Source of the DNA: Oscillospiraceae bacterium
GTDB lineage: Bacteria > Bacillota > Clostridia > Oscillospirales > Oscillospiraceae
Assembly (NCBI GenBank): GCA_015067495.1
Contig: SVMI01000005.1
Span: forward strand, 41,599 to 105,598
DNA length: 64,000 nt
Reading direction: 5' to 3'
Shown here: piece by piece, positions 40,459 to 45,653 of the stretch
Numbering within the stretch: the first letter of the stretch is position 1
Layout: each line of letters starts with the position of its first letter
Notes under the pieces: generated by a model
What the model saw: the letters and a program-made list of their open reading frames with translations, nothing else
Database searches by the model: none
What the model was told of the DNA's origin: nothing
Program-made: the position numbers and the translations under genes

Positions 40459-40522
40459 AATAAAGCACAAAAATAGTGCTTGCAATTTGACGGGAAATAT
40501 ACTATACTATCAAAGCACACTT

Positions 40523-40561
40523 GCCGGTGTGATGGAATGGTAGACGTAGTGGACTCAAAAT
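40523..40561 (+). pseudogene. 5' half of the interrupted host tRNA-Leu(CAA) (attL side)
   Basis: GCCGGTGTGATGGAATGGTAGACGTAGTGGACTCAAAAT then non-tRNA sequence; behind a TTGCAA-17-TATACT promoter. Confidence 0.9.
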
Positions 40562-40566
40562 GTAAA

Positions 40567-40621
40567 TACGTCAAATGGAATCTGGTGGAATATTCCGGTA
40601 TTATCCACTTGATATAGCGGA
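40567..40621. promoter_or_regulatory. Candidate integrase arm-type sites, left end (counterparts at 45205-45241)
   Basis: TACGTCAA, GTGGAATATTCC, TCCACTTGA and ATATAGCGGA each recur within 65 bp of the right core (the last two inverted). Confidence 0.55.
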
Positions 40622-40705
40622 TTATTGAACAAATATCCCTCCTAGCATTTCGAGATCCCTCCAATATTCGGAATTTCGTCCATGGCAGTGCAAACAATTG
40701 AATAT

Positions 40706-40791
40706 GCCGGTGTGTTGGAATGGTAGACGAGGAGGACTCAAAATCCTTTGGTAGCGATACCGTGTGGGTTCGAGTCCCACCACCGGCACCA
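40706..40791 (+). tRNA. tRNA-Leu(CAA), intact copy carried inside the element
   Basis: 86 nt; acceptor GCCGGTG/CACCGGC, anticodon arm GAGGA-CTCAAAA-TCCTT, long variable arm, GTGGG-TTCGAGT-CCCAC, encoded CCA. Confidence 0.93.
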
Positions 40792-40948
40792 CAAAATGTG
40801 GGCCTGTATTCTCAGAATACAGGCTTGCTTTTTGTATTATAAATAGTTATTTTATATCTTCTTGTAGAGTCGTGTCATTTAGGGGATGACAAATTAGATT
40901 TTATTTGGTATAATATAGAAAATATTTTACTTGAAGGAGGGAAATACT

Positions 40949-41851
40949 ATGGAATTCCCGTGGCAGGAAATTGCATCAGCAGCTAATTTGTTGGCATCCC
41001 TTTCGGTTTTTTCAGGCATTATAGTCTATAAACTAGAAAAATCTGATACAGCAATTTACAATGTGCAACGAGCAATTATTAAATTCAGAGCCAATGTCCA
41101 GGCTCTTGATCGGGATTTTAGAACAGAATTATTCAGTGAAATGGCAGCATCTACTATATACGCTGATTCATTATCATCTATATATCCCAAGATTCTCTCG
41201 GAACTTAATAATTCCATCAAAGAATACCAATCATTATCTCGTAAGAAGCAAGATGCTTTCTTGAAAACAGCTTCAGTAAAACTTATTAAATTAATCGGTG
41301 CAATTCCAACATCTGTTTCTACCCCATTAGTATTACGAACAGAGGATAGGATTGAAGAGCTAATTAAAGAGTCTTTGCCATTCACTCCTCATTTTGCTGG
41401 ATTAGAGCGAGTCGCAACAACAGTTTACCATTTGTATTTCCAATTATTAAATAAGTATCGGGCAATTTGCTTGGATCTTAAAAACTGGGAAGTCGTATTC
41501 AAAAACATTATTTGCAACGAAGTTGTACTTGATAACGTGGAAGAACTCAAGTATACACTATGTATTCATTTAGCGGCATTGCAAAATACAATTGCTGCCG
41601 AACACGATCAAGCAGATATTGATATAGTTGTTAAAATTGTTAACCTAATCTGTAATGCATATCTCTCGAAAAGCACACATGAATTAAAGAAGCTTAGAAA
41701 AAGCAAAGTTTCACTATTGCCCTTTGAATCATCTGATACATATGTGGCACAATTTACTGAGGCACAAAAAGCATTTAGAGAAGTGCTTTCTCGAGATGAG
41801 GAAAATGCTTATTCAAATTATGTAAAAGAATTTGAAATGAACAACCAATAA
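40949..41851 (+). CDS. Hypothetical cargo protein (N-terminal hydrophobic helix, alpha-helical body)
   Basis: 300-aa AT-rich ORF with AAGGAGG RBS; no motif recognised. Confidence 0.75.
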   Translation: MEFPWQEIASAANLLASLSVFSGIIVYKLEKSDTAIYNVQRAIIKFRANVQALDRDFRTELFSEMAASTIYADSLSSIYPKILSELNNSIKEYQSLSRKKQDAFLKTASVKLIKLIGAIPTSVSTPLVLRTEDRIEELIKESLPFTPHFAGLERVATTVYHLYFQLLNKYRAICLDLKNWEVVFKNIICNEVVLDNVEELKYTLCIHLAALQNTIAAEHDQADIDIVVKIVNLICNAYLSKSTHELKKLRKSKVSLLPFESSDTYVAQFTEAQKAFREVLSRDEENAYSNYVKEFEMNNQ

Positions 41852-41852
41852 T

Positions 41853-41893
41853 CAAAAAAGAGAGGTGTTGCCTTAACAACGCCTCTCTTTTTG
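41853..41893. terminator. Bidirectional terminator between convergent cargo units
   Basis: CAAAAAAGAGAGGTGTTG...CAACGCCTCTCTTTTTG. Confidence 0.75.
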
Positions 41894-42292
41894 TTAATCA
41901 TTTTCAGAAACTGAAACAGTGGAAACAGTAGTTGATTCTCCCAATCTAAGCTTGTGTCCCATACTATTCAAGATAGCAACTGCTTTTTCAGCTATTGTCT
42001 CATGAATGATTTTAGGGCAATAATCCGCTGCAACGGCGCTACGGTTTTCTGGAATCGGGTCGAACTTGAACACAAATTCCGTTTCACAAGTCATCTTCAG
42101 CAACTCTTCACTCGGATCTTTTATTACACAATCTGCCTTTATCAAGATGGTAGGGTCGGTTTCATCCTTGGGCTCATAAACAGAAGCGGAGTGATTAACT
42201 TCAATTTGAGTAATAGCGGATTCTTCAAAATTAACGTCTACAGTTAACTTGTTAATATGCGAGCTAAGCAATTCAACACAATAACCAGCCAC
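41894..42292 (-). CDS. Small acidic protein, putative SecB-like chaperone
   Basis: GTG start with AGGAGG RBS overlapping the hicB stop; four beta-strand-like segments followed by a long helix ending SMGH; size and position fit a TAC chaperone. Fold is inferred by eye. Confidence 0.5.
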   Translation of the reverse strand: MAGYCVELLSSHINKLTVDVNFEESAITQIEVNHSASVYEPKDETDPTILIKADCVIKDPSEELLKMTCETEFVFKFDPIPENRSAVAADYCPKIIHETIAEKAVAILNSMGHKLRLGESTTVSTVSVSEND

Positions 42293-42303
42293 GATTCTAC
42301 CTC

Positions 42304-42759
42304 CTAAGATAATTGAGTGCTAGGCATCGAGTGATACCTATTGGTGTCAACCCTATCACTAAATGCATGCATAGTTGCTGCTTGCTGGACAACCGGTAAC
42401 TGAACGATAACTTCTTTGTATCGTACTGGCTTGATATATTCTTCGATTGCCTGTTGAATAAACTGATTTAAGGACACACCATCCTCCTCAGCTTTAAGGG
42501 CCGCTTTTCGATGTAATTCCTGAGGAATTCTAACGTTAAATGATCCTTTGTATTCTTTATCAGGGGCAATGCCTCTTGCTTCACAGATTTCTAAATAAGT
42601 GTCGATGCAATCATGAAATGATTCTTTGACCTCTTCAATAGAAGCACCGTGAAAGTTCAGAGAATCTCTAATACCAAATACCGAACCAACCAAAATACCG
42701 TCATCCGCATCAAATTCGACTTTGGCATGATAGCCTTTGTATGAGAGCATGTTGGACAT
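42304..42759 (-). CDS. hicB: HicB family antitoxin with about 40-aa C-terminal extension
   Basis: LSYKGYHAKVEFDADDGILVG..NFHGASIEEVKESF, then RHH GSFNVRIPQELHRKAALKA..SLNQFI. Confidence 0.9.
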   Translation of the reverse strand: MSNMLSYKGYHAKVEFDADDGILVGSVFGIRDSLNFHGASIEEVKESFHDCIDTYLEICEARGIAPDKEYKGSFNVRIPQELHRKAALKAEEDGVSLNQFIQQAIEEYIKPVRYKEVIVQLPVVQQAATMHAFSDRVDTNRYHSMPSTQLS

Positions 42760-42771
42760 AAAAATTTCTCC

Positions 42772-43029
42772 TTATGATTCGCCAATATCTTCGAGAAATG
42801 TACGAACCTTTTTTATTTGATAGGAATATAATTCCTTTCCGGGGTGAGGACCATCAAAAATAAGTTTGCGTCCAGTAGATGTATGGATATATGCGATAGC
42901 AGAACCCCGTCCACCTGAACATTTTTCGCAGCCGCACATGCGCATGAGCGCATCTAGTTCATTGACGGTAAAGTTCTTTGGGATACTTTTGCGCCATATT
43001 TTTTCCATAAGATCTTCTTTCTTCGGCAA
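42772..43029 (-). CDS. hicA: HicA family mRNase toxin
   Basis: TTG start with GGAGGTG RBS; FTVNELDALM, GRGS, PHPGKELYSYQIKKVR. Confidence 0.85.
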   Translation of the reverse strand: MPKKEDLMEKIWRKSIPKNFTVNELDALMRMCGCEKCSGGRGSAIAYIHTSTGRKLIFDGPHPGKELYSYQIKKVRTFLEDIGES

Positions 43030-43050
43030 ACCTGATCCACCTCCCCATCG

Positions 43051-43111
43051 TTAGTATGCAACTAAGTTTTAGTTGCATACTAATAATACATGTTTATTTT
43101 ATTCAAGTCAA
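43051..43111 (-). promoter_or_regulatory. hicAB promoter with palindromic operator
   Basis: TTGACT-17-TATTAT (43111-43083) and a perfect 15-bp inverted repeat TTAGTATGCAACTAA-3 nt-TTAGTTGCATACTAA (43051-43083) over the start site. Confidence 0.75.
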
Positions 43112-43142
43112 TACACAAAATGAGAAAAATGTAAATATCTAT

Positions 43143-44621
43143 TTACAAAAATGGTAACGATGCTTGCATTGCATTTGCAGAGATCCTTTTGCTGTTGCTG
43201 TCCAAGTGAGTATATATGTTTGATGTTGTGCCAATATCACTATGCCCAAGCCATTCTTGGATATCCTTTAGTCCGATGCCACAAGCATAAAGCAAACTGG
43301 CGCAGCTATGGCGCAGATCGTGGAAACGTATCTTTTTTAGGCTATTCCTTTCCAGCAACAAAGCGAAGTGCTGTGTTACGAAATTGGGCTTCAGCAGATG
43401 TCCCATTGGATCAACACAGACATAATCCAGGTATTCCTTGCAGTAATCTCTCCCAAAGGATTGCTGGTTTTGTATTTGCGTTTCTTTAACCTTACAAAGC
43501 AGCTTTTCGAACGGAGGAACAAGTGGGAGTGTCCGATAGCTGGAGGCCGTTTTTGTTCCATCCTTCTGAATTATCTTCGTGTGCCCGTTGAGTGTTGTTT
43601 GTACCACGGTGTGATTGATGCAGATTGTTTTCCTCTCAAAGTCGATGGCACTCCATTTTAGTCCGATAACCTCACTGCGACGAAGCCCATAGAACGCCGC
43701 TGCTAAGATTGGCAATTCCAAAGGGTCATCCTTGGCCATAAGAAATAGCTGTTGCAATTCATGTTGGTTATAGATGTTTGTATGAAATCTGTCTTTACTG
43801 GGTTTCTCAATGCGATCAGCAGGATTGGACTTTATCAGTCCCAACCGAAACGCATATTGTAAACAGCTGTGAATATTAGCATGGCGTCTAATAACCGTTG
43901 CCGGTGCCAATCCCTCAGACAGAAGATACTGATAATACTCCTGAATATATTTCGGGCGATGCTCCAACTGTTTCAATGTAAGCTGTTTAGGGTCAAAGAA
44001 CGGGATGATGCTTTTCTCTACATTTGAGACATAAGAAGCATATGTAGTTACGGCGATCTTTGATTGCACAACATCCAGCCAGTCAAATAGAAAGTCTGTA
44101 AATAGTATTGTTTCATAAGTACAGGGATTCACTTTAATTGCAGGATTCTCCTTGAGCCACTTTAGCTCTATTGCATACTCCAAGGCAGATGTAAATATGG
44201 CGTGATAAAGTTTTAGTTGTTTGATCCCAGCGCCATTCTCCTCCTGTTCATAGCAATAAAACCGTTCAAGTTCATTAGGGGTCAATTCGGTAAGCTTTAT
44301 CCTATTTGTCAGAAAGTACGGCTGAATATTTGCGCTTAAGGAATAAGCATATCCAGCATACAGTGCGGGTGGAATAGCTGATGCTCTATCATGTATCCAC
44401 TTGTCAATGAAATCAGCAAACAGCATATCAGCGTTTTCAAGCTCGTTTCTGGGGTTAAAATGCTGACGGGTATCCAGCAACATTTGTTCTGCCTTTGCCT
44501 TGTTGCCCTCTACTGTGAGTCTTGTGCTGATAGATTTACTCTTGCGTTTCCCGTCTTTTCCTTTCCAATTCAGTACCATTTGGTAGTATCCGTTTTGCTC
44601 CCTTAGATGCCCAGCAACCAT
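43143..44621 (-). CDS. int: Site-specific tyrosine integrase
   Basis: N-terminal arm-binding segment, two core-binding-like domains, catalytic YGLRRSE, FHDLRHS, LGHSD, NIYTH. Confidence 0.93.
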   Translation of the reverse strand: MVAGHLREQNGYYQMVLNWKGKDGKRKSKSISTRLTVEGNKAKAEQMLLDTRQHFNPRNELENADMLFADFIDKWIHDRASAIPPALYAGYAYSLSANIQPYFLTNRIKLTELTPNELERFYCYEQEENGAGIKQLKLYHAIFTSALEYAIELKWLKENPAIKVNPCTYETILFTDFLFDWLDVVQSKIAVTTYASYVSNVEKSIIPFFDPKQLTLKQLEHRPKYIQEYYQYLLSEGLAPATVIRRHANIHSCLQYAFRLGLIKSNPADRIEKPSKDRFHTNIYNQHELQQLFLMAKDDPLELPILAAAFYGLRRSEVIGLKWSAIDFERKTICINHTVVQTTLNGHTKIIQKDGTKTASSYRTLPLVPPFEKLLCKVKETQIQNQQSFGRDYCKEYLDYVCVDPMGHLLKPNFVTQHFALLLERNSLKKIRFHDLRHSCASLLYACGIGLKDIQEWLGHSDIGTTSNIYTHLDSNSKRISANAMQASLPFL

Positions 44622-44736
44622 ATTTCATCCTCCTTTACTAATACTATGTTGTGCTGCTAATGGTATAGATCAATTTTCGCATACATTGGAACTAGCAAAA
44701 GGCACCCGCTGCCGGGTGCCTTCGTCGTTAATATGA

Positions 44737-44979
44737 TTAAATCTGCGCTTTAAGTTTTAGACGATATTTTGCGTAATGGGTTCCGAGAATGTAGTCGATC
44801 ACCCACTCCTTCGGAATTAAGTAGGTACTATGGATATAGTAGTGCCTTACATAGTTTCCGCGCAAAAGTTTTCTTGCTGTCTGATCAGCGATACCACCCA
44901 GCATTTCACAAAACTGTGGGAGTGTCACAACTGCAGGATAATTCTCAAAGCGGTCACGATAGTATTTTCGGTTTCTCAT
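44737..44979 (-). CDS. Excisionase-like HTH DNA-binding protein
   Basis: VVTLPQFCEMLGGIADQTARKLLR..YLIPKEWVIDYI; small, basic, directly upstream of the integrase. Confidence 0.7.
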   Translation of the reverse strand: MRNRKYYRDRFENYPAVVTLPQFCEMLGGIADQTARKLLRGNYVRHYYIHSTYLIPKEWVIDYILGTHYAKYRLKLKAQI

Positions 44980-45267
44980 GAAGTCAGCCCTTTCCAATGT
45001 GAATTGTCAATGACGGATGAGGCTGTTGTAGCATTTTCTGTATTTCAATTTGTGTCGATGGTGACACATCCCTCCAATATCCCTCCAACGAGCAAAAAAT
45101 CCCGTCAAATCAGATGTCACTTTCTACAAGCAGAATTGCTTGTAAATTTAAAGTTCTCTGAAAATTCCGAACTTTTTATAAGTATTTTTCTTAAATAAAT
45201 GCGCTACGTCAAGTGGAATATTCCACTCCATTCCGCTATATTCCACTAGATACCAGACGATGACAAT

Positions 45268-45324
45268 GACTCAAAATCCACCGCTGGCGACAGCGTGCCG
45301 GTTCGAGTCCGGCCACCGGCACCA
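45268..45324 (+). pseudogene. 3' half of the interrupted host tRNA-Leu(CAA) (attR side)
   Basis: GACTCAAAATCCACCGCTGGCGACAGCGTGCCGGTTCGAGTCCGGCCACCGGCACCA; joined to 40523-40551 it gives an 86-nt tRNA with a perfect GTGGA/TCCAC anticodon stem. Confidence 0.9.
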
Positions 45325-45329
45325 AAGCG

Positions 45330-45359
45330 AAGCACGACCCCAACTGGGGTCGTTCTTTT
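45330..45359 (+). terminator. Terminator after tRNA-Leu; near-duplicate at 45976-46005
   Basis: AAGCACGACCCCAA-CT-GGGGTCGTTCTTTT versus AAGCACGACCCCAA-GC-GGGGTCGTGCTTTT. Confidence 0.75.
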
Positions 45360-45376
45360 CTTATTGGCATCACCAA

Positions 45377-45453
45377 GGCGGGCGGATCATATCCGCCCCT
45401 ACGATGTAATGTGGAAATGCGCGTTAAATGTAGGGCGGGTGCTTTCTCCCGCC
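45377..45453. repeat. Inverted pair of GTAG-type REP elements (REPIN-like)
   Basis: 45377-45402 (minus: GTAGGGGCGGATATGATCCGCCC) and 45430-45453 (plus: GTAGGGCGGG..CCCGCC). Confidence 0.6.
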
Positions 45454-45461
45454 GCCACGCC

Positions 45462-45653
45462 TCATTTTTGCAAACGTTCCGTTACCTCGCATAACCATTC
45501 TGCAATGATGTACCGCATTTTAACCCTGACGATTACTCGTTTCCATTGACAGCACTCCTCGCAGAAGTCCGGCTTCCGCGACATCACGAATTTCTTTGGC
45601 TGATCGTTTGTATCCATGATTTTGTTCCAACAGTCTAAGCAAAATTCTGACAT
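45462..45653 (-). CDS. Small hypothetical protein with CxxC...CxxC
   Basis: MSEFCLDCWN...FCEECC; GAGGTG RBS. Confidence 0.65.
   Translation of the reverse strand: MSEFCLDCWNKIMDTNDQPKKFVMSRKPDFCEECCQWKRVIVRVKMRYIIAEWLCEVTERLQK

Follow-up and report, generated by a model that had tools for sequence, protein, structure and literature searches.

In the 64,000-nucleotide window analysed here (positions 41,599 to 105,598 of contig SVMI01000005.1, assembly GCA_015067495.1, from an Oscillospiraceae bacterium), a 4.7-kb integrative element very probably breaks the host's gene for tRNA-Leu(CAA) and supplies a whole tRNA-Leu(CAA) of its own as the replacement. The element occupies positions 40562-45267 of the window and encodes six proteins. 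This reading, first put forward in a first-pass annotation of the window, is supported by the comparative data, which show the arrangement to be the normal design of the family to which the element belongs. The element is the defining member of a large integrase family that was not found described in the literature searched. The principle is not new, having been published in 2024 as tRNA-dependent lysogeny for actinobacteriophages (PMC10865867); what is new here is the non-phage carriers, the fixed geometry and the likely use of the host tRNA promoter.

The broken tRNA-Leu gene and the complete gene inside the element

The host's gene for tRNA-Leu(CAA) is interrupted in its anticodon loop, and each half carries at the break one copy of a duplicated 10-bp GACTCAAAAT (Table 1). 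When joined, the halves form an 86-nt tRNA-Leu(CAA) with a perfect GTGGA/TCCAC anticodon stem, and the intact tRNA-Leu(CAA) of several other species of the genus is essentially equal to the two halves joined, indicating that the split is not a chance resemblance. The sequence adjoining both core copies is unrelated to tRNA, leaving no 3' tRNA part in attP from which a hybrid gene could form, and no tRNA was called at either junction by ARAGORN or Rfam over the region. The sole tRNA that these programs call there is the tRNA-Leu(CAA) at 40706-40791, which starts 144 nt inside the left junction and has the same anticodon as the broken gene, with a different anticodon stem (GAGGA/TCCTT), variable arm and T-arm. 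The first-pass annotation had described the split at the duplicated core, the 86-nt rejoined tRNA with its perfect stem, the absence of a rebuilt tRNA at the junctions and the different complete tRNA inside the element, and each of these was reproduced with the coordinates unchanged.

The 5-kb region that includes both junctions recurs at 99.96-100% identity in ten or more JGI and ENA metagenome contigs that were assembled separately, although these near-identical contigs may represent a single strain. An assembly chimera, which had been named with the first-pass annotation as a possible source of the split, is excluded by these contigs, which carry both junctions, and by a 90-93% identical copy of the att, tRNA and integrase modules in G158, another species of the genus. 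It is highly improbable that no gene was broken and replaced here, and that we are instead looking at a rearranged classical island that restores the 3' part of its target, a host tRNA duplication that left pseudogene pieces, or an assembly artefact. tRNA loci do gather fragments, and decayed or tandem relics are seen at some loci of the family (L059, L015 and a relic in G158, described below), but the fragments in the window fit exactly, have a compensated anticodon stem when joined and are equal to the allele of the genus, the same geometry is found at 50 or more independent loci with host-specific fragments, and both junctions are reproduced in separate assemblies.

Related elements in the genus

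Nine full-length homologues of the integrase in the genus have the same architecture and target Leu(CAA) or Leu(UAA). A host promoter comes first, and then a broken 5' half that runs to the anticodon loop. A spacer of ~145-150 nt, in which CATCCCTCC-type repeats occur, separates this half from a whole tRNA-Leu and its terminator, and a convergent integrase gene follows. Elements whose integrases are 59-93% identical to that of the window are found at Leu(CAA), and those with ~50% identical integrases at Leu(UAA). The promoter-like site at 40480-40508, now upstream of the broken 5' half, is kept in G158 and upstream of intact alleles in relatives. The tRNA-Leu(CAA) gene does not lie beside aspS in other species of the genus, and its chromosomal context varies within the genus.

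The element in G158 shares with the window the module of attL, spacer and tRNA (93% identity) and the module of integrase gene, excisionase-like gene and attR (90%), and nothing else. It lies in a different chromosomal context and carries a 1067-aa HD-CE protein in place of HicAB. Since only the flanking modules are shared, what lies between tRNA and integrase gene is a variable cargo slot.

Several loci in the genus hold more than one element or its remains. At L055 (G158:C108, 9988-13191 and 13376-13521), the HD-CE sister element is accompanied by a decayed second copy of the spacer and tRNA, 73% identical to window positions 40634-40791. L015 (G022:C32, 5433-7738) is a tandem junction of two elements, with the right end of the first adjoining the spacer and tRNA of the second. 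Behind the first element's excisionase-like gene and arm come a core-like AACTCAAAAT, an arm with TTGCCCTCC repeats, a whole host-type tRNA-Leu(CAA) and an integrase gene split in two frames. At L059 (G173:C5, 8680-9500), a broken tRNA-Leu(UAA) 5' fragment is preceded by spacer-type CATCCCTCC repeats and not by a host promoter, which suggests that the cargo tRNA of one element may have become the target of a second, with the original host fragment apparently lost.

Survey of the integrase family

A scan of one genome per species returned more than 575 relatives of the integrase, and the best 80 of these loci, spread across Bacillota, were examined. The linkage of a full tRNA to homologous integrases, a search for which was proposed with the first-pass annotation, holds at 70 of the 80: a class II (long-arm) tRNA adjoins the integrase gene, just past its end and on the opposite strand. 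These tRNAs are Leu (CAA, UAA or CAG), Ser (CGA) and a few Tyr. A broken 5' half is recognisable upstream in 53 of the 70, separated from the tRNA by a gap of 100-200 nt in 50 of those 53; no fragment was detected in 17-20 of the 70, in part because of contig ends or weak fragments. In a tree of the integrases (a quick search, with Shimodaira-Hasegawa-like approximate likelihood ratio test support only), the break-and-replace layout is present in all major clades. The whole-tRNA layout is the rule for this integrase family.

Gap and loop statistics were obtained for 58 loci, including the window and the genus copies. The distance between fragment and cargo tRNA has a median of 150 nt (interquartile range 147-152, range 127-181). 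Fragment and cargo tRNA agree in all 7 nt of the anticodon loop in 55 of the 58 loci, and the anticodon-stem strand differs in 42 of those 55, indicating that the cargo tRNA mostly represents a foreign allele. Some loci share an identical integrase, spacer and cargo tRNA and have different host 5' halves in front of them (L062 versus L063; also L013, L014 and L056), which places the boundary between host and element in the anticodon loop.

The family includes much larger elements. L063, in a circular long-read metagenome-assembled genome of Candidatus Scatomonas, is an element of ~40 kb with both ends verified; judged by its genes for a relaxase, a coupling protein, VirB4-like and TrbL-like proteins, a topoisomerase and an ArdC-primase, it is a conjugative element. 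An element of ~45 kb, again with both ends verified, is present in the isolate Yeguia hominis NSJ-40. In the integrase tree, near-identical integrases occur across host families, as in Ruminococcaceae UBA1404, Desulfotruncus arcticus and Syntrophomonas.

L062 (DXFT01000195.1) is a 4-kb contig binned as Candidatus Odoribacter (Bacteroidota), whose integrase is identical to that of L063 (OZ006967.1) and stands behind a different host 5' half; it is either a mis-binned contig or a very recent transfer. In L071 (Desulfotruncus arcticus), the broken 5' fragment is identical to the 5' part of the cargo tRNA found in the near-identical elements L070 and L079, which hints at a possible insertion into the cargo tRNA of a previous element.

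Transcription of the cargo tRNA and its role in the cell

A scan of the 144-nt spacer (40562-40705) found no promoter-like or terminator-like site, and the AT-rich tract that abuts the 5' end of the cargo tRNA sits too near to it to serve as a -10 box. Among the family loci, a promoter-like site lies at most 80 nt upstream of the 5' fragment in 30 of 57, with scores of up to 12 of 12. Promoter-like matches in the spacer are found in 10 of 58, all scoring 9 of 12 and at scattered positions, in a spacer about twice as long as the upstream stretch scanned. The lack of a consistent promoter in the spacer makes transcription from the host promoter plausible, and the constant spacing and co-orientation of the cargo tRNA fit a read-through precursor. 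The host promoter at 40480-40508 is therefore the likely driver of the cargo tRNA, as predicted from these sequence features.

The alternative is that the cargo tRNA uses a promoter of its own inside the element, independent of the host promoter. Phage Fionnbharth offers a precedent, since its tRNA has a strong promoter of its own (PMC10865867), and the inner cargo tRNA of the tandem array at L015 has no host promoter upstream. The weak spacer matches in 10 of the family members point the same way, but their low scores and scattered positions, the empty scan and misplaced AT-rich tract of the window, and a cargo tRNA that is always co-oriented with the broken gene at a near-constant 150 nt from it speak against an internal promoter, which we regard as the less likely reading.

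No Leu(CAA) gene other than the cargo gene is present in the assembly, which is 97% complete. With UUG accounting for 8% of Leu codons, or 7.9 per 1000 codons, the cargo tRNA presumably matters to the cell. The first-pass annotation had argued that its loss would abolish UUG decoding if no other CAA gene existed. Indeed no other was found in the assembly, but loss of the cargo tRNA need not abolish the reading of UUG, as a tRNA-Leu(UAA) gene is present on another contig (C8) of the same genome.

Gene content and the recombination module

The insert has a GC content of 39%, compared to 51-57% in the flanks and about 53% genome-wide. Searches of Pfam, PHROGs, NCBIfam and PADLOC assigned neither the 306-aa nor the 132-aa protein to a family. 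The integrase retains the catalytic R, K, H-x-x-R, H and Y, with R314/R315, K357, H434, R437, H460 and Y470 invariant in the alignment. The duplicated core suggests that this enzyme performed an attP x attB recombination. For the small excisionase-like protein, 8 of 14 aligned homologues match PF12728 (HTH_17), and a protein in the same position is found in a 40-kb relative; its profile gave no significant match to solved structures. With the integrase, the excisionase-like gene and the att sites, a module for integration and excision is present.

Four ATCCCTCC repeats, two in each arm and all in one orientation, contrast with a genome-wide frequency of this motif of 0.037 per kb, and an imperfect 26-nt inverted repeat brackets the would-be attP core. 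Arms and core thus resemble a lambda-type attP in their anatomy, with putative arm sites. We also considered whether the split tRNA might be rejoined in trans, the 26-nt inverted repeat pairing the trailer of the 5' half with the leader of the 3' half. This was rejected, as there is no plus-strand promoter upstream of the 3' half, and the imperfect inverted repeats that flank the core in relatives are better read as candidate integrase binding sites.

Searches with Pfam and PHROGs found no relaxase, mating-pore, replication, capsid or other structural, or lysis genes in the element, in agreement with its initial description as minimal, and a profile search found no PF03432 (MobA/VirD2-type) relaxase in the genome. 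Lacking structural, lysis and replication genes, the element does not qualify as a temperate phage; it works like the tRNA-dependent phage system but is not lysogeny.

Table 1. Features of the broken tRNA-Leu(CAA) locus and of the inserted element (window coordinates)
Feature	Position	Strand	Basis and remarks
Host tRNA-Leu promoter-like site, TTGCAA-17 nt-TATACT	40480..40508	+	Promoter scan; now upstream of broken 5' half
5' half of host tRNA-Leu(CAA)	40523..40561	+	Ends in anticodon loop; 95-100% identity to 5' part of intact genus alleles
attL core copy GACTCAAAAT	40552-40561		End of 5' half
Element arm X1, probable attP P' arm, 144 nt	40562..40705	+	Inverted repeat 40576-40601 near core; two ATCCCTCC repeats, 40635-40642 and 40655-40662
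Complete cargo tRNA-Leu(CAA)	40706..40791	+	ARAGORN; Rfam 53 bits; A73, encoded CCA, long variable arm
Intrinsic terminator of cargo tRNA	40798..40835 (or 40798-40828)	+	Terminator scan
306-aa cargo ORF	40931..41851	+	AT-rich; own strong promoter-like site 40886-40914
132-aa cargo ORF	41894..42292	-	ORF call
HicB antitoxin	42304..42759	-	Pfam HicB 9.5e-24; PHROG 9151 1.7e-38
HicA toxin	42772..43029	-	Pfam HicA_toxin 1.1e-06; PHROG 8887 3.6e-16
Tyrosine integrase, 492 aa	43143..44621	-	Pfam Phage_integrase 8e-22 and SAM-like domains
Putative excisionase-like small DNA-binding protein, 80 aa, divergent HTH_17	44737..44979	-	Adjoins attR across the family
Element arm X2 (P arm)	44980..45267	.	Two ATCCCTCC repeats, 45068-45075 and 45079-45086; inverted repeat partner 45230-45255
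Promoter-like site facing the excisionase-like and integrase genes	45212-45184	-	Within arm X2
3' half of host tRNA-Leu(CAA), displaced	45268..45324	+	94-97% identity to 3' part of intact alleles of relatives
attR core copy GACTCAAAAT	45268-45277		Start of 3' half
Host terminator	45334-45353		3' of displaced 3' half

Proposed mechanism and mobility of the element

We propose that the element at 40562-45267 entered the tRNA-Leu(CAA) gene by means of its tyrosine integrase, with crossover at the ~10-bp core in the anticodon loop. As attP brings no 3' tRNA part, the gene stays broken at both junctions. The element instead offers a complete and self-consistent tRNA-Leu(CAA), which begins ~145 nt from the crossover, has the orientation of the broken gene and ends in a terminator of its own. 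Once integrated, the cargo gene stands ~185 nt behind the host tRNA promoter, from which a long precursor of 5' fragment, spacer and tRNA is probably made and trimmed by RNase P; the cargo tRNA would thereby take over the decoding of UUG. If the integrase and the small excisionase-like protein excised the element precisely, the host gene would be restored. Carrying a whole tRNA would also spare the element from having its 3' half pair with the 5' half of each new host, and could widen its host range; a hybrid of host and element parts would here have a T-T mismatch in the anticodon stem.

Some observations weigh against this proposal. Transcription from the host promoter is deduced only from the lack of a recognisable promoter in the spacer, and the cargo tRNA may be dispensable, since tRNA-Leu(UAA) could read UUG by wobble. 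The cargo allele is not foreign to the genus, as the genus relative G001 has it behind a promoter of its own: at L018 (G001:C143, 3404-3489), a tRNA-Leu(CAA) 100% identical to the cargo tRNA, with a similar terminator, follows its own consensus promoter without a 5' fragment, on a contig that ends 140 nt further on. This gene is either a donor-type native allele or a recombination product from which the spacer was removed. No empty site was found between aspS and the AraC gene: the insert is present in all contigs that extend to the site and encode an identical AraC protein beside it, and in relatives intact alleles lie elsewhere only. Finally, neither the attP junction of an excised circle, GATGACAATGACTCAAAATGTAAATACG, nor a shorter attL/attP pattern is present in the metagenome and viral contigs searched. 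In phage and plasmid collections, matches were limited to similarity at the level of the tRNA and to four small 'Bacteriophage sp.' scaffolds that lack annotation and encode integrases of 45-47% identity; these scaffolds are linear without terminal repeats and so provide no attP.

These negative results bear on a reading in which the element is the same but this copy is stranded and effectively fixed, with neither excision nor transfer, its cargo tRNA being simply the tRNA-Leu(CAA) of the species. The uniform presence of the insert at 99.96-100% identity, the missing attP junction in public contig collections, and the absence of transfer genes from the element and of a relaxase from the genome are what such a remnant would leave, and we consider it a real possibility, if the less probable one. 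However, the near-identical contigs may be one strain, and the integrase frame is intact with all its catalytic residues, as are the excisionase-like gene, the two arms and the two core copies. The 90-93% identical att and integrase module of G158, in another chromosomal context and with other cargo, also argues against a stranded copy. By the break-and-replace proposal, the window copy would presumably still be able to move. Transfer genes are missing from it, variation among its close relatives is confined to the cargo slot (HicAB here, the HD-CE protein in G158), and its more distant relatives are fully conjugative; it is therefore a mini derivative that is either stranded or mobilisable in trans.

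Taken together, these data can be read, tentatively and with somewhat less than even confidence, as describing a self-contained 'att-tRNA-int' cassette, whose promoterless replacement tRNA would be switched on only when it lands behind a host tRNA promoter. Such a cassette would need a match in the anticodon loop alone and would avoid mismatched hybrids; this would allow entry into different host families, and the cargo tRNAs would become landing pads for further elements.

Comparison with known systems

tRNA-dependent lysogeny was described by Guerrero-Bustamante and Hatfull (mBio 2024, PMC10865867) for actinobacteriophages, including Fionnbharth/K4, Cluster L, Cain, the Gordonia CQ2/DL phages and Gaia. 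Their tyrosine integrases act on cores of 8-17 bp in tRNA genes without rebuilding a tRNA, and a phage tRNA of the same anticodon was experimentally required for viable integrants; in Gaia, which uses tRNA-Leu-CAA and an 8-bp core, the tRNA lies downstream of the integrase gene (PMC10865867). The window element likewise has a tyrosine integrase, putative arm-type sites and an attB in a tRNA gene, and it combines a short core that rebuilds no tRNA with a cargo tRNA of the same anticodon. The present system differs in its carriers, which are a 4.7-kb mini element and conjugative elements of 40-45 kb and not phages, in its hosts, which are Clostridia and other Bacillota, and in its integrase, which is at most 28% identical to mycobacteriophage integrases. 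Only long-arm tRNAs (Leu, Ser) are targeted, and there is evidence of accretion into cargo tRNAs. In Fionnbharth, the tRNA lies elsewhere and has its own promoter, whereas here it belongs to the att-int module, keeps a nearly constant distance of 150 nt from the core and is apparently promoterless.

Classical islands in tRNA genes have been mapped by Islander (PMC4383910), and elements of the ICEMh1 type, such as ICEMh1 and ICEPmu1 at tRNA-Leu-UUG, restore the gene in the classical manner (PMC6861422). The window element shares with these a tyrosine integrase, a crossover in the anticodon loop, an integrase gene beside an intact tRNA and a displaced 3' fragment at the far end. In classical islands, a 3' tRNA part beside the core yields a hybrid of host and element, whereas here the intact tRNA is borne wholly by the element and an additional host 5' fragment lies 150 nt upstream. 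A case within Bacillota is the Lactobacillus johnsonii prophage Lj965, which, as far as its description in PMC10865867 goes, rebuilds no tRNA and encodes a cognate one; it resembles the window element in these respects and differs in being a prophage.

The literature search found no description of the whole-tRNA design in conjugative or mini integrative elements, or in Clostridia. A mechanism proven only in actinobacteriophages is extended to conjugative and mini elements of Clostridia from the gut and the environment. The functional tRNA-Leu or tRNA-Ser gene of many such genomes would sit on an element, a point that bears on tRNA annotation, on software for island boundaries and on views of essential-gene turnover. 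Software that expects an intact tRNA at one end and a 3' fragment at the other would misplace the left boundary by ~185 bp and overlook the broken gene. Carriage of a whole tRNA may explain the spread across host families, and the questions of promoter capture and dependence can be tested in cultivated strains that carry family members, among them Yeguia hominis NSJ-40, Caproicibacter fermentans EA1 and Desulfotruncus arcticus DSM 17038.

Sequence downstream of the tRNA-Leu genes

The 360 bp that follow the tRNA-Leu(CAA) 3' half (45294-45653) are 84% identical to positions 2818-3162 of contig C8, downstream of tRNA-Leu(UAA). The two stretches share their terminator, a GGGCGGATCATATCCGCCCCTACG repeat and a minus-strand ORF for a 63-aa cysteine-rich protein, and on C8 a divergent XRE-type gene comes next. 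The shared stretch may represent a small cassette located downstream of tRNA-Leu genes.

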